Below are positions 3,806 to 51,326 of a stretch of DNA of 64,000 nucleotides, piece by piece. Source of the DNA: Pseudomonadota bacterium (GTDB taxonomy: Bacteria > Pseudomonadota > Alphaproteobacteria > Micavibrionales > UBA2020); assembly GCA_021845905.1 (NCBI GenBank), contig JAJZVA010000006.1, positions 74,264-138,263 of the forward strand, given 5' to 3'. How positions within the stretch are numbered: the first letter of the stretch is position 1; each line of letters begins with the position of its first letter. The position numbers and the translations under genes were made by a program. A model generated the notes under the pieces. That model saw nothing but the letters and a program-made list of their open reading frames with translations, was not told the DNA's origin and searched no databases.

Positions 3806-3860
3806 TGGTGGCCCTGACCGGAATCGAACCGGTACGCCCGAAGGCTCACGATTTTAAGTC
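3806..3860 (-). tRNA. displaced 3' part of the resident tRNA-Leu(UAA) (anticodon loop to CCA)
   Basis: Minus strand reads GACTTAAAATCGTG-AGCCTTCGGGCGT-ACCGGTTCGATTCCGGT-CAGGGCC-A-CCA; TCGTG and CAGGGCC are complementary to CACGA and GGCCCTG of the 5' part at 51164-51204. Confidence 0.85.
3850..3860. repeat. att core copy 1 (gattttaagtc)
   Basis: Identical 11-mer at 3850-3860, 8341-8351 and 51164-51174; equals anticodon loop CTTAAAA plus flanking bases. Confidence 0.85.
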
Positions 3861-8207: not shown

Positions 8208-8234
8208 AGCACCTCCGGTAATAAAGTTTCAAAA

Positions 8235-8243: not shown

Positions 8244-8340
8244 TACTGTGAAAGTGAAAATTCGTGGTTTATGTCATCTTCAATTATACTAACTAATTGA
8301 AAATAAAGTCTTAATTTCCGCTAAGACCTTATAATATCAC

Positions 8341-8402
8341 GATTTTAAGTCCTGTATATGATTTTATAAGCTATTGATTTTATTGACTATTATAGGATTT
8401 TA
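8341..8402. repeat. att core copy 2 followed by a GATTTTA ladder
   Basis: gattttaagtc at 8341-8351; GATTTTA recurs at 8341, 8360, 8376, 8396; 8392-8407 ataggattttaccgtg resembles junction ataggattttaagtcgtg at 51161. Confidence 0.6.
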
Positions 8403-13820: not shown

Positions 13821-13857
13821 CGGTCCGATAGGCTGGCATTGGCGCTAGGCCCCGATT

Positions 13858-29948: not shown

Positions 29949-30869
29949 TTAAGCGGCGGCCCTCTCCTCGGCTTGGGATTCTGCGGTCTCCGCCTTCGGC
30001 TGCAAGCTGTGCAAGAAGGCGGCGGCGCGTTCGGCGTGGGCGGCGGCGGTGAAGACAGCCCGCTTGTCGTTCTTCAGTACGCGCAACCAGTTCTCAACGT
30101 AGCTGGCATGATCAGCGCGGGGTTCCGGTGTCAGAGCGAGGTCGGCACAGAGAAACGCACTGCCGAGTTCCGCCACCAGTTCCTCGGCGGCGTAAGCTTC
30201 ATCTCCCCAGCGTTTGCGGCCAAACTCGCGGGCAAGGCGCTTTTCGTGTTTCGTGGCGTGCGTGCATTCGTGCGCCAAAGTGGCGTAATAGCTTTCCGCA
30301 TCCCTGAACGTCTCGAACGGCGGCATCTGCACAACGTCGCGGCCTTCGGCGTAGAAAGCCCGGTCTCCACCATGCCGGATGTCGATTCCGGTCGCGGCAA
30401 AGAAGGCTTCCGCGTGGGCGATGCGCTGCACGGGATCGATCGTCGGCGCGGCGGGTGCCGTGAAGTGCGGCGGCAGATTGTCGATCTGCTCCGCGTTAAA
30501 CACGGTGTAGCCTTTGAGGAAGGGGATTTCGCGCTCGGTATCTTCTCCGTTCTCGGTCGTCTCGGTGCGCGTGATCTTGCTTGCGAACACGACAAGCTCG
30601 CCATGCTCTCCCTTGCGCACCTGCGCCCCGAGTTCCCGCGCTTGTTTATAGGTCAACCAAGTCGGCGAGACGTAACCGGATGCGGTAGCCGTCATCCAAA
30701 GCGTAATGACGTTGATTCCGCGATAGGGGATTCCGTTGTGGCGTAACGGGCGGGTGATGCGTCCTGCGGCATGTTCTGCGTTCCAAGGTTTCACCCAAGG
30801 ACGGGTGCCCGTCTCCAGTTCCGCCACGATGCGGTTGGTGATTCGCGTGTAGATGTCTTGCTTTTCCAT
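29949..30869 (-). CDS. ardC: ArdC-like antirestriction protein (ssDNA-binding N-domain + zincin peptidase)
   Basis: MEKQDIYTRITNRIVAELETGTRPWVKPWN; C-terminal HECTHAT; start at 30869, the track's upstream extension is not credible. Confidence 0.8.
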   Translation of the reverse strand: MEKQDIYTRITNRIVAELETGTRPWVKPWNAEHAAGRITRPLRHNGIPYRGINVITLWMTATASGYVSPTWLTYKQARELGAQVRKGEHGELVVFASKITRTETTENGEDTEREIPFLKGYTVFNAEQIDNLPPHFTAPAAPTIDPVQRIAHAEAFFAATGIDIRHGGDRAFYAEGRDVVQMPPFETFRDAESYYATLAHECTHATKHEKRLAREFGRKRWGDEAYAAEELVAELGSAFLCADLALTPEPRADHASYVENWLRVLKNDKRAVFTAAAHAERAAAFLHSLQPKAETAESQAEERAAA

Positions 30870-31239
30870 GATCTGCCTTCCTTTCCGGGCTTGGGGTTCA
30901 GCGCGCGTCTGAACCCTTGCCCGTCGGCGAGACCGGGGTGTGCAAGCGGAAAGGGGCTTCGCGGGGAACCGGCTGCACGGAGCCGGCGCCGCTTCGCGCG
31001 GGCGGAGGAAGCTGGGCGGAAGCCCCTTGCAGCGCGCTGAGGGGCAGCGCCCCTTCCATGTCCTTTTGCAAGTAATATTTCGTGCGTCAGCACACCGCAT
31101 AAAAATGCCGTGCTGAAATGGGGTTTTTGTGTTTCTGTTGGGTCGGAAGCAGGGCGGCGATGGCGACGGTCGATCAAACTTCCATACGCGGGTCAAAAAC
31201 CGCATGAATGCGTGTCGTCTTGGGCCTACCTCGGACTAA

Positions 31240-33464: not shown

Positions 33465-34430
33465 ATGATTCCAAAAATCCATGTGGCGGGGTGGACACTC
33501 TACATATACTCTGAAACGATGAATGCTTCTCTTTTCTATACACAACGGATACACGCGCTTTACGGATTCAGAAAGGCTTCTTACTTTCTATTACAAACGC
33601 GGCTCAGGCCAAACCTGTTCGCTCGCTGGTTCGAGTTTGTGGACGCGGCCCTGCCGCCTGACGTAACGGAGATTTATAAAATCAGGCTGGCGATGCGACC
33701 GGCCTTCCGTTTCATGAACCCGCGGTTTGATGCCGTTGACCGGGTGAACGCCCTCACCCATCACTTCACGGTGCTGCGGGAAAAATTCCCCGCTCCCGTC
33801 CGCCTCACCATGACACAGGAAAGAACCGGTTACAGGCTGGCGGAGGTGACCGGGAAAAGCGGGAAAAAATACGCGTTCGAAACGCGCGGCGAAGTCACCA
33901 AGGAAGGAGGGATCAGGATCGTCTTCTTCGATGCCGAAAAAGAAGACGGGCTGGCTTTGCTGGCGGGCATTCTTGCAACGGACAAACATGGCAAACAGAT
34001 TTTCAACATCGGCATGCTGCGCGGACCGAACAAGAACAACAAGGAAATCATTATCAAGGCCACAAAGGACCTGAACGGCCTCCGGCCCAAACAGGCGGTT
34101 TTGCATGCAGCCGCCGCGCTGGCGGCATGGCTAGGCGCGGAAGAAATCGTCGCACCCTCCTCGGAAAAAGAAATCGCCATGAAGAACCTGTTCAAGGGGC
34201 ACAAGGTTCTCGCCAACCACGACCCCTTCTGGCGGGAGTTCGCGCAATCGCCCGCAGCCGACGGCATTTATCACCTGCCGCTGCCCCTGCCGCGCCGTGA
34301 CGAGTCCGAAGTGCAGCAAAAGCGTCGCAAGGACTGGCGCGCGCGCTACGAGCATATCGACGCATTTTCGACAGACATCAAAAACGCGCTGGATGCGCTT
34401 TCGGGAGAAGAAAATGGCAATACGTATTAA
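33465..34430 (+). CDS. VirK/YbjX (DUF535) family protein
   Basis: Family recognised from overall pattern incl. KDLNGLRPKQAVLHAAAALAAWLGAEEIVAPS; start uncertain (33465 or 33519). Confidence 0.6.
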   Translation: MIPKIHVAGWTLYIYSETMNASLFYTQRIHALYGFRKASYFLLQTRLRPNLFARWFEFVDAALPPDVTEIYKIRLAMRPAFRFMNPRFDAVDRVNALTHHFTVLREKFPAPVRLTMTQERTGYRLAEVTGKSGKKYAFETRGEVTKEGGIRIVFFDAEKEDGLALLAGILATDKHGKQIFNIGMLRGPNKNNKEIIIKATKDLNGLRPKQAVLHAAAALAAWLGAEEIVAPSSEKEIAMKNLFKGHKVLANHDPFWREFAQSPAADGIYHLPLPLPRRDESEVQQKRRKDWRARYEHIDAFSTDIKNALDALSGEENGNTY

Positions 34431-35295
34431 AAAAACAATCTACAGGGAATGGCACCGGGCGCTGTTCCGCCTGCAGGAAACCTGCGGAGCCGCTTCCGTG
34501 AAGCATTGTCCCGCGCAAACGGTTTTCCTCCATGTGCCAAAGTCGGCGGGATCTTCAGTCACGGAATATTTCGCCTGTTTCATCGGCAAAAGCGGGTCGG
34601 ACAGGTTCGTGAAGATGGAAAAATTCAGGGGCGGCGACCCGCACGCGGATGTCAGCGCGGAAGGCGTGCAAAAAGCCCGCAACGGCAGGTTCGTGACGGG
34701 GCATTTCGACTGGCATACGCTCGAAGCCGTCCGTCAGCCGCACGCCTTCGTGTTCACGTTCCTGCGCGATCCCGCCGCGCGCCTCCTGTCGCTCTACCAT
34801 TATCTGCATCATATCGACGAGAACACGCAGCCGGAAGAAAGCATGAAGGAATGGTTCCGGCATATGAAATCTCTGACTCTTGAAGAATTTTTTTCCAGCA
34901 ATGACTCCAGAGCTCTGTACGAAACGAATAATTTCATGGTGCGGCAGTTCTCCGGACAGTTAAACGGCGGCGCGGGGGTGGATGCGCCCTTTGAAACAAT
35001 GCTTGAACAGGCTCTGAGAAACCTTGAAACATTGAACTATGTAGGTTTTCAGGAAACATTCACGGACGACTTTGCCGCCCTCGTGAAAAAAACCGGTTTC
35101 CCGCAGCGCCTCATGCCGGCTGAAAACATGACGCATAAAAAGGCCGCCTATCCCGGCGCGCGCTATGCCGCGAAAGCGAAGAAGGAGGACGTCCTCGCCC
35201 TCGCCGGCGCGCGCATCAAGTGCGATGCCGAGTTCTACCGGCGGGCGCGGGCGCGGGCGCCGGAAATCAACAGCCGCCCGTACGCGCACGGCTAA
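34414..35295 (+). CDS. sulfotransferase family protein
   Basis: FLHVPKSAGSSV PAPS-binding loop; 17-nt overlap with upstream gene. Confidence 0.7.
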   Translation: MAIRIKKTIYREWHRALFRLQETCGAASVKHCPAQTVFLHVPKSAGSSVTEYFACFIGKSGSDRFVKMEKFRGGDPHADVSAEGVQKARNGRFVTGHFDWHTLEAVRQPHAFVFTFLRDPAARLLSLYHYLHHIDENTQPEESMKEWFRHMKSLTLEEFFSSNDSRALYETNNFMVRQFSGQLNGGAGVDAPFETMLEQALRNLETLNYVGFQETFTDDFAALVKKTGFPQRLMPAENMTHKKAAYPGARYAAKAKKEDVLALAGARIKCDAEFYRRARARAPEINSRPYAHG

Positions 35296-35308
35296 GGAGG
35301 AAGTTGCG

Positions 35309-36580
35309 TTGAAGATCAGCATCGTCGTCCCGTCGCGCAACGGCGCGCCCTATCTGCGCCACTGCCTGGAGACCTGCCTCGCTTCGCCCGACCGCGATCT
35401 CGAGGTCGTCGTCAGCGACAACGACAGCGCCGACGACACGCGGGAAATGGTCGCGACCTTTTCCGACGGCCGGCTCCATTATTACAATACCGGCGAAAGC
35501 CTGAGCATGAGGCGGAACTTCGAGTTCGCGCTCGGCAAGGCCACGGGCGACTACATCATCTTTATCGGCGACGACGACGGCGTTTTGAAAGACGGCCTTG
35601 CTACTCTCCGCCGCGTTCTTGAGAAGTACCGCCCCGACGTCGTCAACTGGCGGCATATCACCTATAAATGGCCGCATGTCGATTATCCGGACAGTCCAAG
35701 CGTGCTCAAGTTCCGCCCGCAGGACTTTTTCGGCCCGCTCTACAAAAGGAACGCGCGGAAAATGCTGGACGCGTTCTTCGCGGGCGCGCGGACAAGCTAC
35801 CGCGACGCGGCGCACATCTACCACGGCGCCGTTTCCCGGCAACTGATCGAGAAAACGCGCGCCAGGACCGGAGATTATTTCATGGGGCAAAGCCCCGACA
35901 TCTATACGGGGTTCGCCAACCTGACGCAGATGGACGATTTCATCTGGATCAGAAACCCCGTCACCATCGGCGGCGAAAGCCCGAAAAGCAACGGCGCGGC
36001 GTGCCTGAAAGACGGAAAGCGGTCGTCGGCGCAAGCGCAAATCAATAAAAGCTTCATCGATCTCGCCGGGCAGGACGACGTCGTTCCCGAGACGGACTTA
36101 AGCCTGCGCTGCCTTGCGGCGCACGTCTACGCCAACCTGATCCGCGTGAACGAAACGATCCTGAACGGCGCGGGCGAAATAAACCACCGGAAATGGCGCG
36201 AAACCGTTCTGGCCGCCAACGACAGGCAGGAACCGGCGGTGCGGCAAAGGCAGAAAGACATCCTTCACGCGTTTTTCGCCAAGGCCGACCCGCTTTACGT
36301 CCCGCCGCCGCCGCAACCCGCCGCGGAGATCGCGCCGCAACCCGATGAAGGCGCGGCGACATCCGCGCCGCCTGCAAAAAACAAAGCGCAGCGGCCCGAC
36401 CTGCTCACCGTCGAGGACGCCCGCAGGTGGATCGACGCCGTGACGGAGGAGGGATACCTGCCCCAAAAGTTTCTGCCGCTGGCCTTGCCCGCGCAGGCCC
36501 TTCACGCTTTTCGCCTGCGCGGCAGCATGCGGAAGAACAGCTATCAATTGAGAAAAAGAAGAAAGGCAGAACAAAAATAA
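35309..36580 (+). CDS. family 2 glycosyltransferase
   Basis: AAGGAGG RBS then TTG; KISIVVPSRNGAPYLRHCLETCL...VVVSDNDSADDT...FIGDDDG. Confidence 0.75.
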   Translation: MKISIVVPSRNGAPYLRHCLETCLASPDRDLEVVVSDNDSADDTREMVATFSDGRLHYYNTGESLSMRRNFEFALGKATGDYIIFIGDDDGVLKDGLATLRRVLEKYRPDVVNWRHITYKWPHVDYPDSPSVLKFRPQDFFGPLYKRNARKMLDAFFAGARTSYRDAAHIYHGAVSRQLIEKTRARTGDYFMGQSPDIYTGFANLTQMDDFIWIRNPVTIGGESPKSNGAACLKDGKRSSAQAQINKSFIDLAGQDDVVPETDLSLRCLAAHVYANLIRVNETILNGAGEINHRKWRETVLAANDRQEPAVRQRQKDILHAFFAKADPLYVPPPPQPAAEIAPQPDEGAATSAPPAKNKAQRPDLLTVEDARRWIDAVTEEGYLPQKFLPLALPAQALHAFRLRGSMRKNSYQLRKRRKAEQK

Positions 36581-37713: not shown

Positions 37714-37790
37714 AGACGCAGCGTCACACAGGAAAATTGGGGGCGACCTTCAGGGGGAACCAAGGCTTCCTGTTGACGCGGGAAGCGTCT
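37714..37790. promoter_or_regulatory. conserved structured leader element, copy A
   Basis: AGACGC-A-GCGTCA-C-ACAGGAA...CCTTCAGGGGGAACC...TTCCTGT-TGACGC-GGGAA-GCGTCT; homologous copies at 46295 and 48655. Confidence 0.65.
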
Positions 37791-38186
37791 GCGGCTGGCA
37801 CGGTCGCTAGACACTGCCGTTCGGGGGACGGCAAGCACGGAGAGAAGTTGAACCGCCAAAGCGAAGACAGTGCTACACGCTATCGCACGATCAAAACGGC
37901 CTGAAATGCCTCCGCAGCTTTCGCCGTGGCGGCGCGCGACGCAGGAACATTGACCGAAGCTGCGGCGCGCCCGGCGGCGCCGGCGATGGCGGGGGCGGCG
38001 CTGGCGGCGGAGGAGGTTTCGCGAGAAGGCGCTCGATTGCTGCAATCGCCACGGCGATCCTGCGCTGCGCCAATGCCAGCATGCGCAGCATGGTTCCGGT
38101 CAAAAACCGGGAACCCCAATTGGAAAGCGCGGCAACCTTTCTGGTGAGGAAGCGGCTCGGCTTTGATTGCAGGAAGCGCGAACCGC

Positions 38187-39701
38187 TTAGCGTACACGTG
38201 GTGGCGGATCGGGTCCGTCCCTGCTTCGCCCATGTTCGTCCTTGAGCTGTTGTTCGAGGCGACGGCGCTCCTCGATCTCGGCGAGGAGTCTTACGGCGGC
38301 TTCGTGCTCGCGCAAATACCGGTCGCGTTCCTGCTCGTATTTGGCGTCGTGTTCGCGGCGCTGTTGTTCGTGGCGTTCGGTCAGCTCGGCGAGGTCACTT
38401 GCCCGTTCGGCCTTGAGGCGCGCGACCCGGTCAGCGCGTTCCTCTTTCTGTCGGCGCAAGAAGGCGTCCTTCGCGTCTTTGCGGTCGCGGGCTTTGTCGG
38501 CCATTAGTTGCGGATTGAGTCTTTCTTTGATCGCTTCGATGAAAGCGGCGATGCCGGTCTTTGCCCGATAGGTGTCCCGGAAAAACTGCTCCCTCGCCGC
38601 CTGTTGCAGGGCGTCGAAGTGACCGAGCTTCTCCCGGGCTTCCTCTGTGAGGACCCGCGCCGTCTGTTTGTATTCAGCCTCTTGCCGGAGGCGCATCTGG
38701 CGGCCTTCCTCCGCATGGCGCTCCTTCAACGCGGTTTCAAGGGCGGCGATTTCTTCCTTGGTGGGGTCTTGCTTGGCGGGGCTGTCCGGCGCGGGGCTTT
38801 CCGACGGTGACGGTGGCGGTTGGGGCGCGGGCTGTTGGTGAGCTTCAGGGCTCTCTGGCGGGGCTTTCTCCGGCTCCGGTTTCCGGGCGCGCTCGTCCTG
38901 AAGCGCCTTGGCCTGATCGATGGTCGGGATCACGTTCCGGTCGATGTCGGCCATGAATTCCCGCAGCTCTTTGGCGTTCACGCCTTTGATCTGCCGGGCG
39001 AGGCTATAGACCTGGTGATGTTCGTCCACGATCACGTAATCGCGGCGGTCGCCCCTGGCGAGGACGTAGCCCTTTTCTTCAAGGGCCGCCTTGAAAGCCT
39101 GTCCATTGTCGGATTGCTCATAGAGCGCGGTGATGGCGGCTTTGAATTCCCGCGGGTCGATGCCGGTGCGTTCGCCCTGCTGCCATTCGGCGTGGTTGAA
39201 TTCCTGCCGCGGGAACTCCGGCTGCTTCTCCCGATCGCGTTTGGCGTGCTTGCCGGGAACGTGCTCGTGCCCGAATTCCTTTTCGAGGGCCATGCTCGCC
39301 CGCTCGTGGGCAAGGTAGTTCCAACTGTCGGAGCGCAGCGTCATCGTGTCGATGTCGGTGCGCTGCCAGACGACGTGGATGTGCTCGCGCCCGTGCTTTT
39401 CATGGAGGACGACGGCGCGGGGCTGGTCTTCCAGGCCAAGCTCTTTTTCGAGGACTTCGACGGAGCGCTGCCACTGCTCGGGCGTCATGGCGTAGTCGCC
39501 GTGCGGGTCGATGTTGGCGTGATAGAGCCCCCGGCTCCCCAGAGTGCCTTCGGTCAGAAACTGCCAGTCGCGAAAGCTCTCCTTGAGGCTGTCGTGCGGG
39601 GACTGGATTTCGAGGATTTTGACGCGCTCATTGGTGTCGGTGCGGAGAAGATGGCGGGCGAGCTGGTCAGGGCTGCCGCGGCTGCTACCCTTGATGATCA
39701 T
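38187..39701 (-). CDS. relaxase/mobilization nuclease (MobA/VirD2 family)
   Basis: MIIKGSSRGSPDQLARHLL..., HGREHIHVVW His motif; long coiled-coil C-terminus. Confidence 0.85.
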   Translation of the reverse strand: MIIKGSSRGSPDQLARHLLRTDTNERVKILEIQSPHDSLKESFRDWQFLTEGTLGSRGLYHANIDPHGDYAMTPEQWQRSVEVLEKELGLEDQPRAVVLHEKHGREHIHVVWQRTDIDTMTLRSDSWNYLAHERASMALEKEFGHEHVPGKHAKRDREKQPEFPRQEFNHAEWQQGERTGIDPREFKAAITALYEQSDNGQAFKAALEEKGYVLARGDRRDYVIVDEHHQVYSLARQIKGVNAKELREFMADIDRNVIPTIDQAKALQDERARKPEPEKAPPESPEAHQQPAPQPPPSPSESPAPDSPAKQDPTKEEIAALETALKERHAEEGRQMRLRQEAEYKQTARVLTEEAREKLGHFDALQQAAREQFFRDTYRAKTGIAAFIEAIKERLNPQLMADKARDRKDAKDAFLRRQKEERADRVARLKAERASDLAELTERHEQQRREHDAKYEQERDRYLREHEAAVRLLAEIEERRRLEQQLKDEHGRSRDGPDPPPRVR

Positions 39702-40071
39702 CAGACCCCTCCCCGGCGGGTTTCATGCCGAGGGCGGTGAAGATGGCGTCGCGGATCATGCGATAGGCGGCCAGTGCCTCCTTGATTTCAGGGAGGGGGA
39801 CGGTTTCGCCCTGGTTCAGCCGGCGGGCGATCTGGTTGATGTTGTTGCCGATGCGCCCGCACTCGCCGAGGAGCTGCCGCAGGGTCCGATGGTCGGCGGT
39901 GGGCCGGCGCCTGGCGCGGGGGCCGGCATCGCCGAAGGCGGCGGCCCGCATGAAAGCGCCCGCGGCCATGCCGCTGCGGGAGGACAGGGTTTCAAGGGCG
40001 GCGCGCTCGTCTTTGGTCAGACGGACGGTGACAGTCTCGCCCCGCTGTCGTTTGTCGCTCCCGCTCGTCAT
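39685..40071 (-). CDS. mobC: MobC-family relaxosome accessory protein
   Basis: VRLTKDERAALETLSSRSGM... and GRIGNNINQIARRLN. Confidence 0.85.
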   Translation of the reverse strand: MTSGSDKRQRGETVTVRLTKDERAALETLSSRSGMAAGAFMRAAAFGDAGPRARRRPTADHRTLRQLLGECGRIGNNINQIARRLNQGETVPLPEIKEALAAYRMIRDAIFTALGMKPAGEGSDDHQG

Positions 40072-40180
40072 TCCACCCCTCTTGCGTGCGTCGGCACGCG
40101 GGTTTCAAGGGGCCTGTCTTGGCGGGGCCGGCGCGGTGGGACCGGCTCTCCCGGGCGGTTCTTGTCTGCCGCCCCGCAGC

Positions 40181-40572
40181 CAAGGGCGCAAAATGCCCCT
40201 GGTCGTCGCCGGGGCCGAAATCCCCGGTCATGGGTTCCATAGGGAGCACGAAGGCTCCCTTGGTCGGTGCCGGGGCCGAAACCCCGGTCAGAGTGCAGGG
40301 GCTCGAAGGCCGCCTGCTCGTGGGTGCCGGGACGCGAAAGTCCTGGCGAGTGGTCAAGGGCGCGATAGCCCTTGTCAGGGTCCAGGGCGGAACGCCCCGG
40401 CCATGGGTTCCTTAAGGGAGCACGGAGGCTCCCTTGGTCGGGTCCAGGGCGGAAGCCCGGTCTGGTCCAGGACGAAGTGCCTGGTCTGGGTCCACGGGGC
40501 GAAGCGCCCTGGTCCTGGGGATGCAACGGGGGTGGACAACCCCCTTGCCAAGCCGCGCGGTGTGACCGCGCA
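40181..40572. repeat. ladder of at least 10 short GC-rich hairpins punctuated by (T)GGTC, upstream of mobC
   Basis: e.g. CCGGGG-CCGAAAT-CCCCGG, AGGGAGC-ACGAAG-GCTCCCT, CAAGGGC-GCGATA-GCCCTTG, AAGGGAGC-ACGGAG-GCTCCCTT; ~39-nt direct repeat at 40229 and 40402. Confidence 0.7.
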
Positions 40573-41040: not shown

Positions 41041-41520
41041 ATGACGGTCTGGATGCCCGTTGGGGACGGGTTCATTGAAGCGGATGTAATCCGATGGACG
41101 GAGCCGGTGTATAGGGACCGGCTGCGTGGAAAACCTGTCCGGGTCGGTAAGCGGCTGGTGACGGCGGAGGTCCTGGAGGCGGACAAAGACGGCTGGACCC
41201 ATCTGCTGGTGCGTGGCGCCAAGGCGGTATCGGCGAACTTCGGCTGGAACCTCCGCGACGTTCTAGTCCCACCCAAAGACGAAGAAACAAAACGGAAACG
41301 GACGACCATTACCAGAGGCGGTGCCGAGCGGCTGCTGTGGAGCGATGAGAGCGCCCGCGCCCTCGTCGCCAGCCGGTTCCTGAACGAACGAGACACGGCC
41401 CCGCCAGTGTCCACCGCCAAGCTCCGTCGTCCATCCCGACCCGCCCGTCATTCCTCTTCCGGGAAACACAAGAGGCGCATTCGCGATACCGGATGGAAAC
41501 CGCCTCGCCCGCGATTTTGA
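41041..41520 (+). CDS. hypothetical protein, paralog of 4688..5020
   Basis: GGAG RBS; conserved N-terminal and RLLWS blocks shared with the small element; basic C-terminal tail. Confidence 0.6.
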   Translation: MTVWMPVGDGFIEADVIRWTEPVYRDRLRGKPVRVGKRLVTAEVLEADKDGWTHLLVRGAKAVSANFGWNLRDVLVPPKDEETKRKRTTITRGGAERLLWSDESARALVASRFLNERDTAPPVSTAKLRRPSRPARHSSSGKHKRRIRDTGWKPPRPRF

Positions 41521-41711: not shown

Positions 41712-44700
41712 TCACGTCCTGACCTCTTCCGGCCCGGGAATGTCGGCGGCGACGAGTTGCTTTAGGTCCTCTATTCCTACGTCATGCGCATCCGCCAGCC
41801 TCGTCGCCTGTCGTTCCATGCAGACTTCGAAGAGATTGCGCACCGCGCGACCGTTGCCGAACCCCTTGCCACGCCCTGTATAGAGCGCATGGATAGTTTT
41901 CTTGAGCTTCGGGGGCGCCTTTCCGGTCAGCTCCATGCCGTTCCGGGCACAAAGCCCCCGGAAAATCTCCATCAAGTCTGACGGTTCATAGTCGGGGAAA
42001 TCGATGAACGTCTTGAAGCGCGATTTGAGGCCGGGGTTGCTGTCCACGAAACCCTGCATTTCTTCGCGATAGCCCGCCGCGATGACCACGAGACGGTCCC
42101 GGTAATCCTCCATGAATTTGAGCAGCGCCGTAACGGCCTCGATCCCGAAATCGTTGTTCGAGTCTGACGAAATCAGGCTGTAGGCTTCGTCGATAAACAG
42201 CACGCCGTCCAGGGCCTGCTCCACGGCCTCCGCAACCTTGGGCGCGGTCTGGCCGATATATTCCGCCACCAGATCGCCCCGGCTTACCTCGATACAATGG
42301 CCTTTTTTCAGGACCCCAAGATCGCGATAAATCCGGCCGATGATGCGCGCGACCGTCGTCTTGCCCGTGCCGGGGTTGCCCGTAAAAACCAGATGGTTCG
42401 ACCTCTCGGGCACCGGCAAGCCTGCCTTCCGCCGTGCCTGGTTGACTTTCTCCAGATTGGCGACGGTTTCGACCTGCTTTTTGACGGGCGCGAGACCGGT
42501 CAGTCCGCGCAGGTCCGCGAAGGGGTCTTGCTTCGTCTCGACCGGAGCGGGCGCTGCCGGTTGCTTTTCTCGGGGCGGCTTCGGCGGAGGCGATGACGGT
42601 TGCGGTGGCGGTTGCGGCGGTTTCTGCTGCCCTTTGCTGAAATAAGGATTCTCGTCGTACTGAAGCGGCGGCGCCTTACCCATGTTGTACGGATACATAT
42701 GCTTGAGATGATCGTAGGCACGATCGAGATTCCAGTAGTCGATGGGTCTGAGATACTCCGGCAAACCGCGCGGGTTGAGCAGGATTGCCACGTCCCGCCC
42801 GAGATTGAGAATCTCGTCGGGCATCAGCAGCGGGCGTGCCATCTCGCCGAAGTTGGTGCTTTCCCCGGATGTGGCGCCGCCCTTGGTCTCGCCGGAGGAC
42901 ATGGATGTCGCCACGGTGCGCACGGTCGCCTTGCCGAGGCTCTCGCTGAGATATTTGGCGGTGTCGAGTTCGTTGACGAAACAGAACCACTTGAAGGCGC
43001 AATTGCTGAGGATCGTTCCGCTGGAATCGCCGTAGTGATCCTTGAGCTGGTCGAGCCCCTGCACGATCAGCGTGAAGTCGAGCCCGTAGCCGCTCATCAG
43101 CGCGATATCGCGCGGAATGTCGTCGATGCGCCCGATGGAGCCGAACTCGTCTATCAGGAACATGCAGCGACGGCGCGGCACGCTTGTGGCCTTGTGGCTT
43201 TTCATGCCCTGCATGGCGGAGGCGATGACCAGCCGGAGCCAGGTGGCGTGGGTTTGAATCCGGTCGTGCGGGATGACGAGATAGACGGTGGTCGCTTCCT
43301 CCCGGAGCTTCTTCATCGAAAACGAAGACGAGGCCGTCGATTGCTTGATCTGCGGGTCCGACAGGAACTTGGTGTTCTCTGCCAGGTTCGACATGATCCC
43401 GCTGTAGGTTTCCGGCGCGAGGTCGATGTACTGGCTGACCATCTCGCTGACCGCGCCGTGGTAAGCGGTTGAAGCCGTCATCTTGACCAGAATCTTGAGA
43501 AACTCGGCCCGGCTCATGGTCACGATCTGACGGGCGCGGGCGAGGGTCTTTTGTTCGCCCGGCGCGTCGGCGATCCAGAGAAAGACGCCCGCGAGCACGT
43601 TGGCCGCGCTCCCCTGCCAGAACGACTCCTTGCCTGTCGCGGGCGGGCAGATGATTGCCGCGAGCGATTGGGCGAAGGCGACGGCGTTGGGATCGTTGCG
43701 GTCGAGCGCGTCGAGCGGGTTGAAAGTCGCCCTGGCGAAGCCAAGGCTCCGGTAACGGCTCTCCATTTCTCCCCACGGGTTGACGATATGGACCGTCTGC
43801 TTATGCCGGTTGCGGCGCGTGCGCGCCGTGATCGCCGCGTTCTCGCCTTTGGGGTCGATGACCAGCATCGAGCCTGTGTAATTCAACAAGGTCGGCACGA
43901 TAACGCGGGTGCCCTTGCCCGCCCGCGTGCGGGCCACGATCAGCGTATGTGTTTCCGGCGATGACGTGACGGGGGCGCCGGGAGCATCGGCAGGGATGTC
44001 AGGTCTGCTGCTTTTACCGAAGTTGACGCCCTGGAACATATTCTCCCCGCGACGCTCCACGATCCGATGTTCGGCCCAGTCGGCGGTGCCGTAGTTGTCG
44101 CTCAGCGGCGGAAGGGAATCGTCCGGCTCTTCTTCACGTCTCAACATCAGCCACCCAAAAAACCCGATCACGAACGCGCCGCCACCGTAAACCAGAACGT
44201 AAGCGCTTGCGGTGATCCAGGGATTCGGCTTGACCGAAGACCCCGCGTTCGCGGAAGAAACGGGGTTCTGGCCCCGTCTTTGCGCCTCACTCTCCCAATT
44301 GACCTGCGCCGCCACGTATTCCGGCGCAAAGTAGCGCCCGAGCACGTCACGCATAAAATCCGTGTTGGCGCTGTAGGCGTATTCCTTCTCGAAAAACTGC
44401 GGCCGGATGCAGCTCTTGCCGGAACAATTCCCGTCGTTGAATTTGAGGCCATAGGGTTTCTCGCCGAAGGCGCGGGAGTATTCCCGAAACTTGGCGGCGG
44501 CGCGGGGCGGCATCGACCTGATGTCCAGGGCGCCGGTCCAAACCTGAATCGCGTTGCGGAGGATTTCGAAAGCTGCGGCCTGCCGTGCGGCCGTATCGAT
44601 TTCGTTCGAACCCCGGACGTCCCTGAACACTTGCGCGACCGTGGGAGCATGGGCGATCCATCCGTCGCTCATGGCTGCGGCGCGGCAGGTGGCCGGCACA

Positions 44701-44747
44701 GGAGCAAGCGCCAGAGCGAAAGACAGACAGAGCAGACGAAAGCGCAT
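41712..44747 (-). CDS. VirD4/TraG-type coupling protein fused to a C-terminal CbbX/SpoVK-like AAA+ module
   Basis: Signal-like MRFRLLCLSFALALAPVPATC (start 44747; track start 44855), TM segment, IVARTRAGKGTRVIVPTLL Walker A, Pro-rich linker, then VFTGNPGTGKTTVARIIGRIY...GVLFIDEAYSL. Confidence 0.8.
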   Translation of the reverse strand: MRFRLLCLSFALALAPVPATCRAAAMSDGWIAHAPTVAQVFRDVRGSNEIDTAARQAAAFEILRNAIQVWTGALDIRSMPPRAAAKFREYSRAFGEKPYGLKFNDGNCSGKSCIRPQFFEKEYAYSANTDFMRDVLGRYFAPEYVAAQVNWESEAQRRGQNPVSSANAGSSVKPNPWITASAYVLVYGGGAFVIGFFGWLMLRREEEPDDSLPPLSDNYGTADWAEHRIVERRGENMFQGVNFGKSSRPDIPADAPGAPVTSSPETHTLIVARTRAGKGTRVIVPTLLNYTGSMLVIDPKGENAAITARTRRNRHKQTVHIVNPWGEMESRYRSLGFARATFNPLDALDRNDPNAVAFAQSLAAIICPPATGKESFWQGSAANVLAGVFLWIADAPGEQKTLARARQIVTMSRAEFLKILVKMTASTAYHGAVSEMVSQYIDLAPETYSGIMSNLAENTKFLSDPQIKQSTASSSFSMKKLREEATTVYLVIPHDRIQTHATWLRLVIASAMQGMKSHKATSVPRRRCMFLIDEFGSIGRIDDIPRDIALMSGYGLDFTLIVQGLDQLKDHYGDSSGTILSNCAFKWFCFVNELDTAKYLSESLGKATVRTVATSMSSGETKGGATSGESTNFGEMARPLLMPDEILNLGRDVAILLNPRGLPEYLRPIDYWNLDRAYDHLKHMYPYNMGKAPPLQYDENPYFSKGQQKPPQPPPQPSSPPPKPPREKQPAAPAPVETKQDPFADLRGLTGLAPVKKQVETVANLEKVNQARRKAGLPVPERSNHLVFTGNPGTGKTTVARIIGRIYRDLGVLKKGHCIEVSRGDLVAEYIGQTAPKVAEAVEQALDGVLFIDEAYSLISSDSNNDFGIEAVTALLKFMEDYRDRLVVIAAGYREEMQGFVDSNPGLKSRFKTFIDFPDYEPSDLMEIFRGLCARNGMELTGKAPPKLKKTIHALYTGRGKGFGNGRAVRNLFEVCMERQATRLADAHDVGIEDLKQLVAADIPGPEEVRT

Positions 44748-45173
44748 CTGAATCAGTCCCCGGGGCATCGCCACAGGCGGCTCGATGGCAGACAAGGCCG
44801 AAAGCTCTGTAGTCCGTCCGACGCCAGAAGCGATAGTGCTGCGGAAGTATTGCATACGCCAGTCCCTGAACCTCTGAAAAAAGCGCGTTGGAGACCTGCC
44901 GCTTTGATTGTGTCCGCGCGGTAATGATTCAAATCCATGATCTCCCCCCCTTTTCAGGGAGCCCCGATTCCGGACTTCGATGGTGCAGCGTTAGCACCGG
45001 CGCGCCTTTGGGCGCTGCAAGCTTGTTGCCAAGCTCCTTCTCTTCGTTGCGGTCCACTCATGTTGCGCATGCACAGCATGGTGGATGCAGCTCAAGGCGG
45101 CCGTCGCTCTCCACGGCTGCGTGAAGTCCGCGATCGGCGCGGGCAGAAGAAAAGGAGAGACACCATGAGAGTC

Positions 45174-45443: not shown

Positions 45444-45950
45444 TCACGCGCAACGATAAACAAGCCGCGTTCCGGCAATGGTCGTTTCGCTGTAGTCCAT
45501 GCCGAGGTCACGGGCGATGGCGTCATAGTCGAGATAATTGCGGATGGGTTCGGGGATTTCTCCGAACAGTCCTTCATCGACAAATTGCTCGGCGAGTTCG
45601 CGCAGGCTGTCTATTTGATAAAGATCAACGTCGAAGTCGTCCGGATCGCCGGAAGCCAGGTCGAAGCGGTATCCGCATTCGCCGACGGCGATGATGACTT
45701 TCTGCTTCTGATTATCGTCCCACGCGTCGCAGGCGTCCAGAAATTGCGGGAAGTTGCCTTGGTTGACGCCGAGCGCCTCGAACAGCTTCGCGTCGATGCT
45801 TTCGCCGTCGATGAATTGCAGTTCAAATCCCTCCACGGGGCAGCCAGCGGAATTGCGTAGCTTCGCGGCTTTCTCCGCGTATTCGGACGCGGTTCGGAAG
45901 TAGAAGCCCGTGGCGCTGATGTCGTAAGGTTGTGCGAATAATTCGGTCAT
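45444..45950 (-). CDS. ardA: ArdA-family antirestriction protein
   Basis: Acidic 168-aa protein; family recognised from overall pattern incl. MTELFAQPYDISATGFYF N-terminus. Confidence 0.75.
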   Translation of the reverse strand: MTELFAQPYDISATGFYFRTASEYAEKAAKLRNSAGCPVEGFELQFIDGESIDAKLFEALGVNQGNFPQFLDACDAWDDNQKQKVIIAVGECGYRFDLASGDPDDFDVDLYQIDSLRELAEQFVDEGLFGEIPEPIRNYLDYDAIARDLGMDYSETTIAGTRLVYRCA

Positions 45951-46294: not shown

Positions 46295-46396
46295 GGGCGC
46301 GGTGTCACACAAGAAAATCGGGGGGAACCTTCAGGGGGAACCGACCCCTGAACGAAGTTCGGGGCCTGTTTTCTTGTTGACGCCAGAAAGCGCCCG
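46295..46396. promoter_or_regulatory. conserved structured leader element, copy B
   Basis: GGGCGC-GGTGTCA-C-ACAAGAAAA...CCTTCAGGGGGAACC...TTTTCTTGT-TGACGCC...GCGCCC; compensatory changes relative to copies A and C. Confidence 0.65.
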
Positions 46397-46512: not shown

Positions 46513-48330
46513 TTACCGGAGGATGTCCGGCAACCAGCCCGTGCCGGCGATTTCACGCTCAGCAAGTGCGGCCAGCTCGGCCTTCTTGAGCTTGTCCCAT
46601 GCGGGCGCAACCGGCTGCTTGCGCGCGTCTGTCAGGGCATCGAGGATTTGCGGTTTGCTGATGCGGCTGAAATATCCCTCGGCCGTCGGGGTGAACCACG
46701 CCTTCATGTCGAGCTTGACCGCGACGGAGAGTTTACTGGCATGGTCCAGTCTCGGGCAGTCCGGACGATCCGTCTTGCGCTGCACGGCATTGACCATGCA
46801 GGCCGCGCAGAATGTCAGGAGATCGAGTAACACGGACTGATCCTGCTCCAGACACCAGTTCCAGAGATCATCCGGAGTACCGGGGATACGTTGGCCCCAG
46901 GATTCACGGGCTCGTTCAAGACGCTGGAAAGCAGTCGAGCCTTCGACAAGATTCAGCGGCTGCGTTTTGCCGGAAAGTTCAAGGGCCGTAGCGTGTCCTT
47001 GATCGAATGTGTCCAGCACAAGGGCGTACACGATCGTGGCAAGACCTTTGTCCGGTGCGTCCAGCAAGGTTGCGGCAAGCGCTGCCGACCTATGGGCGGT
47101 CAGGCTCTCGACCAGCGCCGCCGACAATCCGGGAGTCTCCGCTTCAACGGCTGCGGTATCCGCATCGCCGGGAACGCCAGAGACTTTTGCCTTTTTGGAC
47201 TGTTTCGGCATGTCCTCCGGCTTCACAAAACCGCGCTCGATCTTCACCTTGCCGGCGTGATCGAGGGATACCACGGTGCCCGCGATCGCAAGCTGTTCCG
47301 GCGTCCAGACGCCGTCGCGGTCTTCGATGTCGGCGATGAGCTTCTCCAGCTCGTCGAGACGTTCCGGCGCTTCGCCCGCGTCGGATGCGTACCACGCGTC
47401 ATTCAGGGCGGTGTATTCCGCCTGAAGGCTGTCGAACCGTTGCTGTTCGTCTTCGGTCAGGGGAACGGGCTCGGGATAGATACGCCTGTAAGCGGAACTT
47501 TGCGCGTATCCGAACTCGGGCATGACTTCGATCCATTTCCAGCCCTCGGCGCGGACCGGCTTGGCCTTCTTCTCAAGCTTCTCCGTCACAAGGCTGTCCA
47601 GCAGGGCGGCGTCTTCGATATAGACGCCGTTGTCGTCGTCGCTGAACAGGTCGCGCTTGAGATTGCCACCGGCCTTTTCGTACCCGTTCAGGGTCACGAA
47701 TTTCACGCGCTTGTCGGTTGCGGCGATGTCGTTCTCCGTCAGGGCGTCGCGGATGTCGCGGGCATCGTTGCGTTCGGGGTCGTAATCCGCCAGCACGCGT
47801 TCCTGCGCTTCGTGGTCGTCGGTCACGGCGAAGGCCATGACGCATTCCAGCGTCAGGTCGCCGTCCCGGTACGCCTTGATGATGCTCGGGCTGACACGGG
47901 CCAGTTTCAGGAGCTTCTGGACGTGGGCCTCGCTGCATCCGAAACGGGCGGCAATATCCGCAGCCGGCATACCGTCATCGGTCAGGGAACGGAACGCCTC
48001 GAACTGGTCGGCGGGGTGCATGTCTTCCCGCATGACGTTCTCGGCCAGGCTCAATTCCGTTGCGTTGTCGGCCGCCGTGATGCGGCATGGCACCGGAAAT
48101 GTCGCCTGTAGATCACCGGTCTTGGCGAGTTGCTGCAAGGCTTTCAGGCGTCTGCCGCCGGCGACGACGGCGAACTTCTTGCCGTCCTTGCGGACGACGA
48201 GATTTTGCTGAAGGCCGTGGGCTTTGATGCTGGCGGCCAGCGCGTCGATGCCGTCCTTGTTCCGGATTTTCCGAACGTTGCCGGACCAGACGGTCAGCTT
48301 GTTGAGCGGTACATTTATAATGTCGGTCAT
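46513..48330 (-). CDS. ParB/Srx N-terminal domain protein
   Basis: VPLNKLTVWSGNVRKIRNKDGIDALAASIKAHGLQQNLVV ParB-type N-domain; 605 aa. Confidence 0.75.
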   Translation of the reverse strand: MTDIINVPLNKLTVWSGNVRKIRNKDGIDALAASIKAHGLQQNLVVRKDGKKFAVVAGGRRLKALQQLAKTGDLQATFPVPCRITAADNATELSLAENVMREDMHPADQFEAFRSLTDDGMPAADIAARFGCSEAHVQKLLKLARVSPSIIKAYRDGDLTLECVMAFAVTDDHEAQERVLADYDPERNDARDIRDALTENDIAATDKRVKFVTLNGYEKAGGNLKRDLFSDDDNGVYIEDAALLDSLVTEKLEKKAKPVRAEGWKWIEVMPEFGYAQSSAYRRIYPEPVPLTEDEQQRFDSLQAEYTALNDAWYASDAGEAPERLDELEKLIADIEDRDGVWTPEQLAIAGTVVSLDHAGKVKIERGFVKPEDMPKQSKKAKVSGVPGDADTAAVEAETPGLSAALVESLTAHRSAALAATLLDAPDKGLATIVYALVLDTFDQGHATALELSGKTQPLNLVEGSTAFQRLERARESWGQRIPGTPDDLWNWCLEQDQSVLLDLLTFCAACMVNAVQRKTDRPDCPRLDHASKLSVAVKLDMKAWFTPTAEGYFSRISKPQILDALTDARKQPVAPAWDKLKKAELAALAEREIAGTGWLPDILR

Positions 48331-48654: not shown

Positions 48655-48730
48655 GATGCAGCGTCACACAGGAAAATTGGGGGAGACCTTTAGGGGGAAC
48701 CGAGGCTTCCTGTTGACGCGGGAAGCGGCC
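48655..48730. promoter_or_regulatory. conserved structured leader element, copy C
   Basis: GCGTCA-C-ACAGGAA...CCTTTAGGGGGAACC...TTCCTGT-TGACGC; near-identical to copy A. Confidence 0.65.
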
Positions 48731-49244
48731 GCGCATGGCAGGGGGCTCGAACATGCACGAAGGGTGGATGCAAATAGCGGAAGGAGATGATGTGCTGACA
48801 ACGCCGGAGAACCACGGCTCGCAAACAGGAACGCGTCATCATTCCTGAGAAGAACGGACGCGCGGAAAAGACCGTTTGATCACCCGTTCGCTCCACCACG
48901 GCAGATTAGGTGAACCGATCCCGTAGATCGCATCCGTCAACGTTGCGGCCTCCGGCAAGCAGCCGCGCAACCTCGTTTGGATACGGAAGGGAATGTCGAT
49001 AACGGGTGTGCTCACACTTCCGAAAGGAAAGCTCGGCGGCGCCCCCACAGCGCAACGCCCGAGCTGCTGATTGTCAAATGAGGAAAATGTCGAACCCGGG
49101 AATCGTCCGATCCGTGTTCGACGCGGCACGCGCAACGGTCCCGTAGCTTTATCGTGCCTGTCGCCGTTAGGCCGTTCGGCCCGGCTCCGGAGCGCCGTCC
49201 AGCGCTCCCGACAACTTGAAGATTCTCAAGCAGGGAAAGGAAGA

Positions 49245-49558
49245 TGGTGCGGGCGGCCGGACTTGAACCGGCACAGGCCTTTCGGCCCTACGGATTTTCA
49301 TACCACTACGGCTTTCGCCGCGTTCGCCGCTGCGCCTCTCGGCACAGGACGCTTTGTGGTCTGGACTATCCCTTCACCATAGCCGTTGCTTTAGGTGCTG
49401 CCCGTCTAGTCTCTACACCTTCCCGTTTCCGGGCTTGGCTCGGGATTGCCATGTGAAAGGTTTCCCCGACTTTGAGCAGTTCTGCATCGCGGGTTTCCCC
49501 GCGCGCACTCAATTTTCTGGTTTAAGTCCGTTGCGTCTACCAATTTCGCCACGCCCGC
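49245..49558 (-). tRNA. tRNA-Leu(UAA) interrupted by a group I intron (exons 49558-49524 and 49298-49245)
   Basis: 5' exon GCGGGCG-TG-GCGAAATTGGTAGACGC-A-ACGGA-CTT; 3' exon AAAA-TCCGT-AGGGCCGAAAGGCCTGT-GCCGGTTCAAGTCCGGC-CGCCCGC-A-CCA. Confidence 0.85.
49299..49523 (-). ncRNA. group I intron (225 nt, no ORF) between U34 and A35
   Basis: Shares TCGGGGAAACCTTTCACATGGCAATCCCGAGCCAAGCCC and GGGAAGGTGTAGAGACTAGACGGGCAGC with the 6715-6945 intron; GAAGGGATAGTCCAG; ends ...GGTATG. Confidence 0.8.
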
Positions 49559-49746: not shown

Positions 49747-51069
49747 CTATCTTGCCTTTGGGGGCGGAGTCCGCGGTCGCGGCTTGCGCACGTTTATGGC
49801 TCCGGCATCGATGCTGTCTTTGATGTGAGAGGCGTAATACTTCTCGATCATCTCGACACTGGTACGGCAGTTTTTCGCGATCTGATAGATGTCGGCGCCT
49901 TCCATGAGCCTCAAGCTGATATAGGTATGACGGAGGCTATAGGCGGTTCGCTCGTTGCCCTCCCGGTCTGTCTTGAGATCGAGTTCGTTCAAAATGTCTC
50001 TAAACAATTGCCTGTGCGTTTTCGGGAACACCAGGTCCGTCGGTTTCGGAAGGACGGTTGTTGTGTCCGGCTCCTCGTTCGATGCGCCTGACGAAGAAGA
50101 TGATCGAAGGCTTTCGCTCATCTTTGCCGGACGCCGGCGCTTCTCCAAGCGCCTGAAGGGCTCTACTGCGCCAGGCATGCTTTTGCAGTAGCCGACACCA
50201 CGCTTGCCGCGAACGGTGATGACAAGAATGTCGTCTTTGCCGTTTTTGGCGCTTCCGGACTCGATTTCCACGTCCCGAAACTGAAGCCGCAGCGCTTCGT
50301 CGGGCCGCAGTCCGGTGTTCGCCATGAACAGCACAAAGTCATGGAGTTGCTCGCACGACCACTTCCAGCGCGGCTTTGGAGGATTCTTGGCGCGCGTTCC
50401 CGTTGCCGTATAGAGCTGCCTGTACTCTTCCGCAGAGAACCAGGCGCGATGGGATACCTTGGATGAGGATTGGTATGGCGCGGATAGATTGGGAAGATGG
50501 TCAAGCCACCCCTGCCGATTTGCAGTTTTCAGTATCTGACGGAGGCAGACTATTTCCTGATGGAGGGCGCTGCGCGATGGAGGCTTTTGCCTTTCAAAGC
50601 CCTTGGACGAACCGTTCTTCTTGATATGCGCCGCAAGCTTGTGTTGGTCCGTACGGGACATTCCCGTCTTCATGCGGTGTATGCGGTAGTCCTGAACCTT
50701 GCCTGCCGTTATATCGCTGAGAACCAAATTGCCGAAGAACGGATTCAGATGGTTGTTGATCCTGTCCTTGTGGCAGGCGACATATACCTCGCTTCTCTGC
50801 CCTTCGGTAATGGTCTCGAATTCATCGATGAAGCGTTCGGCTGCTTCCCGGAAGGTCTTCCCTTCCTTCAACTCGCCGGCTCGATATTTTCCCAGGAGGC
50901 TTAGGTACCAGTCTCGGGCTACATCCTTTGCGCGGGCGAGGCTTTCTTCTCTCGTCGTGGTGCGCCGCTGGCGTCCGGCCACTGAACACGAGCACTGCCA
51001 ATGCGGACTGTTCTTCCGCATGTAGAGCTGGACGCGATTGTCCATAAGGGAGTGGCGGGTGGTGTCCAT
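49747..51069 (-). CDS. tyrosine recombinase/integrase
   Basis: Homologous over its length to 7005..8207 (FMANTGLRPDEA, AYSLRHTYISLRLMEGADIYQIAKNCRTSVEMIEKYY) with a Ser-rich insertion. Confidence 0.9.
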   Translation of the reverse strand: MDTTRHSLMDNRVQLYMRKNSPHWQCSCSVAGRQRRTTTREESLARAKDVARDWYLSLLGKYRAGELKEGKTFREAAERFIDEFETITEGQRSEVYVACHKDRINNHLNPFFGNLVLSDITAGKVQDYRIHRMKTGMSRTDQHKLAAHIKKNGSSKGFERQKPPSRSALHQEIVCLRQILKTANRQGWLDHLPNLSAPYQSSSKVSHRAWFSAEEYRQLYTATGTRAKNPPKPRWKWSCEQLHDFVLFMANTGLRPDEALRLQFRDVEIESGSAKNGKDDILVITVRGKRGVGYCKSMPGAVEPFRRLEKRRRPAKMSESLRSSSSSGASNEEPDTTTVLPKPTDLVFPKTHRQLFRDILNELDLKTDREGNERTAYSLRHTYISLRLMEGADIYQIAKNCRTSVEMIEKYYASHIKDSIDAGAINVRKPRPRTPPPKAR

Positions 51070-51163: not shown

Positions 51164-51204
51164 GATTTTAAGTCGTGTGCGTCTACCAGTTCCGCCACAG
51201 GGCC
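51164..51204 (-). tRNA. 5' part of the resident tRNA-Leu(UAA), ending in att core copy 3
   Basis: Minus strand GGCCCTG-TG-GCGGAACTGGTAGACGC-A-CACGA-CTTAAAA-TC, then CTATGTAAAATAAT (no tRNA 3' half). Confidence 0.85.
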
Positions 51205-51326
51205 CTGCTTTATAAACCGTCTCCAGAAATTACGTGAACACCCAAAGATATTCAAGGTTTTAACGATATTTTCACCTTTCCTGCATATTATGGATACATA
51301 ACATTTGCACTTCAACACGGGAGAAA

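Follow-up and report, generated by a model that had tools for sequence, protein, structure and literature searches.

The window analysed here, a 64,000-nucleotide stretch of an alphaproteobacterial (Micavibrionales) genome assembly (contig JAJZVA010000006.1, positions 74,264 to 138,263), contains a gene in which a type IV coupling protein (T4CP) of the VirD4/TraG type is fused to a C-terminal AAA+ ATPase of the SpoVK/CbbX/EccA clade. The open reading frame (ORF) lies at 41712..44855 on the minus strand and comprises 1047 codons in a single uninterrupted frame. It is part of an integrative mobilizable element (IME) that has its own relaxase and no genes for a type IV secretion system (T4SS). 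Our favored explanation, with modest confidence, is that the AAA+ module is a substrate chaperone or unfoldase that is tethered to the T4CP and acts on the relaxase or relaxosome. This proposal is based on the membership of the module in a clade that recruits dedicated clients, the presence of a J-domain as the alternative module in related T4CPs, and the need for relaxases to be unfolded during transfer.

The identical 1047-amino-acid protein is found in other public assemblies (in ENA, and NCBI GCA_027431735.1), and the same in-frame fusion is present in at least 12 clusters. When the window protein was aligned with eleven further proteins from these clusters (51-91% identity), every AAA+ motif and T4CP Walker motif was invariant across the 12 fusions, and the proline-rich linker that joins the two parts was free in both length and sequence. 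Conserved motifs separated by a hypervariable linker are characteristic of two functional domains that are joined flexibly, and the alignment thus indicates that the fusion is real and under selection. A reading made earlier from the sequence alone had named a sequencing frameshift that joined two genes as a reason to doubt the architecture. Nothing was found in favor of such an artefact, and the recurrence of the identical protein in independent assemblies, the at least 12 divergent clusters and the in-frame fusions in three other lineages leave it practically no credence. One truncated relative (P0009) seems to be frameshifted in the opposite sense, with loss of the module. In PLSDB, no plasmid record matches the fusion over 80% or more of its length. 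A scan of contigs with two sequence patterns recovered distant fusions and not the close genomic relatives, and one of the patterns, DGVLFIDE, was present in hundreds of SpoVK-like genes that stand alone. When representative proteins were searched with the AAA+ module, the best 150 matches were mostly proteins with multiple AAA domains in tandem, and only one, from Amphritea, had a T4CP core.

The AAA+ module corresponds to residues 777-1047 (41712..42527, minus strand, including the stop codon), as delimited by Pfam, NCBIfam, the alignment and solved structures. It follows a conserved PPLQYDENPYF junction and the hypervariable linker (residues ~741-776; 42528..42635, minus strand; alignment columns ~1090-1190). 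The proline-rich linker and the complete AAA+ domain of the CbbX/SpoVK type that were perceived in the sequence are both present. Pfam detects the AAA core and the AAA_lid_6 domain within residues 823-1039 (PF00004, E = 4.5e-20; PF17866, E = 1.4e-13). The NCBIfam matches within residues 780-1039 are to SpoVK (1.6e-79), EccA (1.8e-73) and CbbX (3.9e-67), and all three scores are under the equivalog cutoffs (266.6 against 422.95, 248 against 466.65, and 226.5 against 459.25, respectively). The closest solved structures are those of CbbX (3ZUH and 3SYL, E = 2e-57) and EccA1 (9LUR, E = 6e-52). A role like that of CbbX in Rubisco activation was considered and rejected, as there is no Rubisco context. 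Membership of the EccA proteins of type VII secretion systems (T7SS) was likewise rejected, given the missing TPR domain and the score under the cutoff.

Most motifs expected of an active ATPase of this clade are present in the module. They include Walker A (GNPGTGKT, residues 826-833) and Walker B (D889 and E890 within FIDEAYSL). The sensor-1 GY (928-929, within AAGY at 926-929) is invariant in the 12 fusions and is the signature used to define the clade (PMC11513918), and the GNGR at sensor 2 that supplies the second arginine finger (1000-1003) is also invariant. In the region of the first arginine finger, N940 and R946 are invariant, and the position four residues after N940 is K944 (E, Q or A in relatives). 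The pore loop Y866-I867-G868 aligns with the YIG of CbbX, and Y/F-I/V-G is present in all 12 fusions. In CbbX, Tyr/Ile/Gly pore loops draw the terminal tail of the client into the pore (PMC5385338). Members of the SpoVK/CbbX/EccA clade have been described as "specialized chaperones" whose variable N-terminal domains bring in a dedicated client, and EccA "operates on T7SS substrates" (PMC11513918).

The C-terminus of this T4CP is variable among its relatives. The 120 closest T4CPs, with cores that are 54-95% identical, were compared downstream of the PPLxYDENPYF junction and the Pro/Gly-rich linker. An HPD-containing J-domain is found in 69 of the 120 and a J-like tail without HPD in 12. The AAA+ module is present in 13, 19 have nothing or a short tail, and the remaining 7 are of other types or apparently truncated. 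All five of the HPD tails that were tested pass the cutoff of the Pfam DnaJ family (30-41.5 bits; cutoff 27.8), and three of the five also give weak echoes of Pam16. To our knowledge, the only role of J-domains is to load and activate Hsp70. Neither Pfam nor the C-terminal comparison detects a J-domain in the window protein itself. On a neighbor-joining tree of the cores, AAA+ forms occur at six or more separate places among the J-forms; for example, P0007, which has the AAA+ module, is sister to P0014, which has a J-domain. The AAA+ forms are therefore polyphyletic on this tree, which implies that the module has been exchanged repeatedly, and by this comparison the junction is a swappable chaperone slot. 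The N-terminal extracytoplasmic domains (a type A domain, a coiled-coil type B domain of ~330 amino acids, and others) are shuffled independently of the C-terminal module. One J-type relative, on a 19-kb "plasmid" of Frigidibacter pcai42B (L092, 989-1983), is annotated as three overlapping pieces, namely two T4CP fragments and a "J domain-containing protein". The fragmentation suggests frameshifts or sequencing errors, and the record may represent the circular form of an IME-like element.

The association of T4CPs with this AAA+ subfamily extends beyond the clade. In Amphritea (Gammaproteobacteria), a 1346-amino-acid T4CP (L008, 9137-13177) with a core that is 29% identical to that of the window protein carries two tandem AAA+ modules that are 55-59% identical to the window module. 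Two T4CPs from Bryobacterales (Acidobacteriota) have cores at 27% identity and one AAA+ module each at 52%. The Amphritea and Bryobacterales fusions each adjoin NikA/MobC and a related relaxase. In one of the Bryobacterales loci (L052), extra AAA+ fragments, which may be a disrupted second copy, lie downstream of the fused gene (12618-14972). On two Mesorhizobium plasmids, a Ti-type traD-traG pair is followed, 10-12 nucleotides downstream, by a separate 370-amino-acid AAA+ gene whose product is 48% identical to the window module (E = 6e-72). In a neighbor-joining tree of ~95 SpoVK-like modules, calculated without support values, the T4CP-linked modules, fused or adjacent, group together, and ~70 standalone SpoVK-like genes from Bacteroidota, Cyanobacteria, Spirochaetes and Fibrobacter fall apart from them. 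Three unlinked genes (L024, L062 and L084), with no T4CP or relaxase nearby, are at the edge of the T4CP-linked group. The tree is therefore suggestive only of a distinct group of T4CP-linked modules.

The first part of the window protein has the features of a membrane-anchored T4CP. The sequence-only reading took the whole ORF as the gene; however, homologues (P0004-6, P0013 and P0014) begin at the position of M37, so the start codon is probably M37 (coordinate 44747, MRFRLLCLSF...), which would give a coding sequence of 1011 amino acids at 41712-44747. A Kyte-Doolittle hydropathy scan reveals only two membrane-like segments, at residues 39-59 and 214-238, which agree with the signal-like N-terminus and the transmembrane (TM) segment that had been proposed. 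The first, within residues 37-59 (44679..44747, minus strand), consists of MRFR, a hydrophobic core and CRA/AAM. It is kept in homologues with the type A domain, and is putatively a cleaved signal peptide or a membrane anchor (TM1). The second, TM2 (44142..44216, minus strand), is followed by a cytoplasmic RREEE stretch.

An extracytoplasmic region between these segments had also been proposed, at ~180 amino acids. Its presence is supported, and its size is corrected to ~150 amino acids (residues ~60-213; 44217..44678, minus strand). An AlphaFold2 (AF2) model of this type A domain built from 23 homologues is an all-helical bundle with a predicted local distance difference test (pLDDT) score above 90 over residues 61-190. 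Positively charged residues on the cytoplasmic side of both hydrophobic segments and a CxGxxC pair (C144/C149) that is conserved among homologues fit the predicted extracytoplasmic location. The domain matches no Pfam family, and a Foldseek comparison with solved structures gave no significant match (best E = 2.4).

The VirD4/TraG-type nucleotide-binding and all-alpha domains that had been recognized in the sequence correspond to residues 297-717 (42705..43967, minus strand). The match to PF02534 spans residues 302-717 (E = 5.8e-77), and the all-alpha, TrwB-type substrate-binding region and TraG-D_C are present (PF10412, 2.2e-31; PF12696, 2.8e-27). The Walker A motif is TRAGKGT (310-316) and the Walker B motif is LIDE (567-570), of which GKGT (313-316) and DE (569-570) are invariant in the alignment of the 12 fusions. 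The best score to a named NCBIfam subfamily (among TraG-Ti, IncP TraG, VirD4 and CD1115) reaches 189.8, where the cutoff is 250, and all others fall far short. By these profiles, the protein is a member of the VirD4/TraG family and not an orthologue of a named subfamily.

The element that carries the fusion spans 8.35-51.16 kb of the window, and by its ends and gene content this 42.8-kb element is a complete IME without mating-pair genes. A relaxase and MobC but no VirB-like genes had been noted previously, and this was confirmed for the mapped element. None of the ORFs scanned across the 64-kb window matches a T4SS family, and all ORFs of VirB4 size are accounted for. The relaxase (38187..39701, minus strand; PF03432) has a MobA/VirD2-like nuclease domain, a coiled-coil region and a conserved basic C-terminal tail (...GPDPPPRVR), and its close plasmid relatives are typed MOBP. 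The adjacent relaxosome accessory protein is of the NikA/MobC type (39685..40071, minus strand; PF21983, 3.6e-15; PF05713, 5.7e-08). Nine related loci have a backbone of integrase, (ParB), (KlcB), ArdA, T4CP, (ArdC), NikA/MobC and relaxase, and no T4SS genes were found within 10 kb in these nine. The same T4CP-MobC-relaxase module is present on 19- and 29-kb plasmids typed as "mobilizable, MOBP".

As the element has no T4SS genes, its transfer would need a helper apparatus. The expectation of the sequence-only reading that the protein docks onto a foreign secretion system would agree with the accepted view of IMEs that have their own coupling protein (PMC5704250). That reading went further, in that the extra ATPase could itself be part of a parasitic strategy, perhaps by evicting or remodeling the coupling protein or ATPases of the helper so that the T4CP of the IME can dock. 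All fused T4CP-AAA+ genes are seen in contexts without a T4SS, and an IME that has its own T4CP is believed to substitute it for that of the helper (PMC5704250); both points speak for this idea. However, the homologous AAA+ gene on the Mesorhizobium plasmids is in an operon with traG, and these plasmids are typed as conjugative with their own mating-pair-formation system (MPF_T). Moreover, most T4SS-less relatives have a J-domain or nothing at the junction, and T4CPs have their docking determinants in the membrane-associated N-terminal part, whereas the module occupies the cytoplasmic C-terminus, far from the part that would contact a foreign T4SS. We therefore consider it quite improbable that the module is specifically a tool for parasitism. 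The variable N-terminal domains, in turn, fit adaptation to different helpers.

The chaperone or unfoldase that we favor could work as follows. The signal or TM1 segment, the periplasmic domain and TM2 would hold the T4CP in the inner membrane, where it presumably docks onto the helper T4SS, and the VirD4/TraG ATPase would bring in the relaxase-DNA complex of the element. The AAA+ module, on its flexible proline-rich linker, would form a hexameric ring next to the T4CP hexamer, at its cytoplasmic entrance. Its Tyr-Ile-Gly loops would take hold of the relaxase, or of a partner in the relaxosome, so that this client is unfolded or remodeled for entry into the secretion channel. In sister T4CPs with a C-terminal J-domain, the same step might be passed to the host Hsp70 (DnaK). 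The conserved basic C-terminal tail of the relaxase is conceivably a handle, although the evidence for this is weak. Such an activity would address a recognized gap. Relaxases must unfold for translocation, and "which enzyme/unfoldase is responsible ... remains unclear" (PMC5826034); an unfoldase that serves the transport of relaxases through T4SSs is still being sought (PMC7434980).

Several observations weigh against this proposal. We infer the client and every mechanistic step from sequence comparison. Relaxase features compared across the partners of AAA+, J and tail-less T4CPs do not differ, and this includes the basic C-terminal tail. The full-length AF2 model, from a 12-sequence alignment, has a mean pLDDT of 47, which is too poor to judge domain packing or ring stacking; it contains a helix at 212-240 that spans TM2. 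The residue at the first arginine-finger position is K944 and not arginine. Some 16% of the clade lacks any C-terminal module, and the module is therefore dispensable or replaceable, and Pfam identified no separate chaperone gene adjoining a tail-less T4CP. The trees are neighbor-joining trees without support values. Finally, the literature on the SpoVK clade leans to "assembly/activation" rather than full unfolding (PMC11513918).

The last of these points also bears on a different client. Perhaps the module remodels the relaxosome or the T4CP itself, by stripping NikA/MobC from the origin of transfer (oriT), disassembling relaxosomes after nicking, or assembling or gating the T4CP hexamer. 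The characterized proteins of the SpoVK/CbbX/EccA clade act by remodeling or activating assemblies and not by complete unfolding. J-domain/Hsp70 systems provide a precedent, as they classically remodel DNA-bound initiator complexes. This alternative draws on the same comparative evidence as the chaperone or unfoldase proposal and differs from it in the client alone, so that nothing discriminates between the two; we regard it as unlikely. A module that is unrelated to DNA transfer, and that instead acts in effector secretion, anti-defense or stress tolerance or is a neutral or decaying addition, would be consistent with the defense and antirestriction cargo of the island and with the module-less members of the clade. 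However, the catalytic motifs are strictly conserved over 51-91% identity, and the association with T4CPs has been kept repeatedly and independently, in both fused and adjacent forms. Such a role therefore seems very unlikely.

Beyond this element, T4CP-tethered chaperones, whether as a covalently attached AAA+ ring or as an Hsp70 that a fused J-domain brings in, might be the sought relaxase unfoldase. Canonical systems would instead use free host chaperones that deliver unfolded relaxase, and the AAA+ subfamily would have been shuffled among the T4CPs of Alphaproteobacteria, Gammaproteobacteria and Acidobacteriota. We put this wider idea forward tentatively and consider it somewhat doubtful; if it is true, the natural fusions reveal a general requirement.

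The fusion appears to be undescribed. In the literature searched, which was open-access only, no fusion of a T4CP, VirD4 or TraG to a J-domain, DnaJ, SpoVK, CbbX or EccA was found, and such fusions are absent from the T4CP reviews and from a 2025 review of T4SSs. The impression recorded earlier that coupling proteins of this kind are unfamiliar thus holds for these sources. The accompanying reservation, that the architecture might prove to be common and already characterized, applies in part: it is recurrent in databases but has not been characterized. Annotation pipelines label its pieces separately, as "J domain-containing protein" or "AAA family ATPase".

Conjugation spreads resistance and virulence genes. 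Coupling proteins with a permanently attached threading-type AAA+ module or J-domain are a natural experiment that hints at chaperone-assisted delivery of substrates, and they provide a clue, open to testing, to the factor by which proteins are unfolded for type IV secretion. They also draw attention to a large and so far unstudied family of mobilizable islands in Alphaproteobacteria. These islands bear anti-phage systems, and their unusual strategy is to split a host tRNA gene and bring along a putative replacement.

The relaxase and NikA/MobC genes are downstream of the T4CP gene, and genes for an ArdA-like protein, a ParB-like protein and a tyrosine integrase are upstream. Short G+C-rich repeats that form hairpins, such as GGAGCACGAAGGCTCC and CCGGGGCCGAAATCCCCGG, are densely arrayed directly upstream of nikA/mobC (40180..40520). 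The array is a candidate oriT or accessory-protein binding region, and no nic site was identified within it. A divergent neighbor of the T4CP gene (41041-41520, plus strand) encodes 159 amino acids with no Pfam match. It is probably a backbone gene, because homologues (30-44% identical) are conserved beside the T4CPs of four loci (L007, L009, L010 and L011). The other conserved backbone genes, all on the minus strand, are ardA-like (45444..45950, antirestriction, a neighbor of the T4CP gene), parB-like (46513..48330) and ardC (29949..31205), which encodes a single-stranded DNA-binding domain and a metallopeptidase. The tyrosine integrase of the element, int2 (49747..51069, minus strand; PF00589 and PF14659), is 57% identical to the integrases in L007 and L009. 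A sequence of 45-89 nucleotides (…CACACAGGAAAATTGGGGG.GACCTT.AGGGGGAACC…) occurs in three intergenic backbone copies with 87-93% identity (37715-37803, 46298-46342 and 48655-48743), and might act as a common promoter or operator.

A host tRNA-Leu(UAA) gene that has no intron is split by the island in the anticodon loop, and the gene is restored at neither junction. The left attachment site (attL; 51165..51206, minus strand) is the 5' half of the host gene and ends in the core GACTTAAAATC. The right site (attR; 3806..3860, minus strand) is the 3' half, whose acceptor CAGGGCC pairs with the 5' GGCCCTG at 51.2 kb. The acceptor and anticodon stems are complementary between the two halves. An internal att core, GGACTTAAAATCGTGA (8337..8352, minus strand), marks the left end of the 42.8-kb element and its junction with a 4.5-kb tandem satellite, and all three sites have GACTTAAAATC in common. 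A search for exact repeats near the integrase revealed no att site, and the ends were located by recognizing the intron-split tRNA.

Each of the two tandem elements carries an intron-bearing tRNA-Leu(UAA) just downstream of its integrase. The copy of the T4CP element (49245..49552, minus strand) has a group I intron (CTT/intron/AAAA; RF00028, 54.2 bits against a gathering score of 50). The classical CTT/AAAA position of this intron is, in the DNA, inside the 11-nucleotide att core GACTTAAAATC. One idea is that the copy with the intron stands in for the host gene that was disrupted and would itself be immune to the integrase. ARAGORN misses all of the tRNA-Leu copies. Locus L004 has the same order of integrase, intron-bearing tRNA and T4CP, and in L005 the integrase is followed by tRNA-Leu(CAA).

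The satellite (3861-8336) has a lower G+C content of ~0.50-0.52. It encodes an integrase (7005-8207) with 72-75% nucleotide identity to int2, an intron-containing tRNA-Leu (6663-6974; intron 45.9 bits, slightly below the gathering score) and an AbiEii-like protein (5650-6660); no mobilization genes were found in its 4.5 kb. The IME itself has a defense island at 8894-29815. This island includes Gabija (GajA, 15897-17768; GajB, 14093-15910), Hma (HmaA, 24054-27575; HmaB, 21100-24057; HmaC, 17807-21103, with an N-terminal Swt1-like HEPN domain) and AbiEi/AbiEii (28194-29815). Genes for an SbcB-like exonuclease (8894-10135), an M78 peptidase (10159-10686) and a ThiF/E1-like protein with a weak BilD match (12489-13820) are also present. 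An IS110-family transposase gene (31337-32464) is beside ardC inside the element, and a cargo cluster of DUF535, sulfotransferase and glycosyltransferase genes is at 33207-36580.

The window protein resembles the VirD4, TraG and TrwB coupling proteins in its membrane anchor, Walker A/B domain, all-alpha domain, TraG-D_C region, and relaxase and accessory neighbors. It differs in the ~150-amino-acid periplasmic insert of unrecognized fold, the C-terminal AAA+ module, and the absence of a cognate T4SS from the element. Published IMEs with their own VirD4-type T4CP likewise have an integrase, a relaxase and a T4CP and no mating-pair genes, and have been proposed to put this T4CP into the T4SS of the helper. 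However, the published examples comprise a few plasmids and Streptococcus elements with a MobC relaxase, whereas the family in the window is alphaproteobacterial and MOBP-like, with T4CPs that carry chaperone modules (PMC5704250 for the published IMEs).

The C-terminal extension of DotL, the T4CP of Legionella, and the C-terminus of TraD of the F plasmid are also platforms for substrates or chaperone-adaptors. For example, effectors are handed over from IcmSW at the C-terminus of DotL (PMC7434980). In DotL and TraD the partners are non-covalent and are not ATPases, whereas the window T4CP has a covalently attached, ATP-driven remodeler, which is replaced by a J-domain in relatives. The J-type relatives, with a short HPD J-domain at a membrane translocase, recall DjlA and Pam18/Tim14, which are membrane-anchored J-proteins; the window protein differs from these in having no J-domain.

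With CbbX, the activase of red-type Rubisco (PDB 3SYL/3ZUH), the module has in common the N-terminal helix, the Walker motifs, the Tyr-Ile-Gly loop within YIGxTAPK and AAA_lid_6. It differs in being tethered to a T4CP rather than free-standing, and in its lack of a Rubisco context. The nearest functional analogy is the parallel with the EccA-EccC pair of type VII secretion, in which a CbbX-clade AAA+ protein is likewise paired with an FtsK/SpoIIIE-like secretion ATPase. In contrast to the fused module, EccA exists in the cytosol as a protein of its own, has a TPR/beta-helix N-terminal domain and serves a different secretion system.

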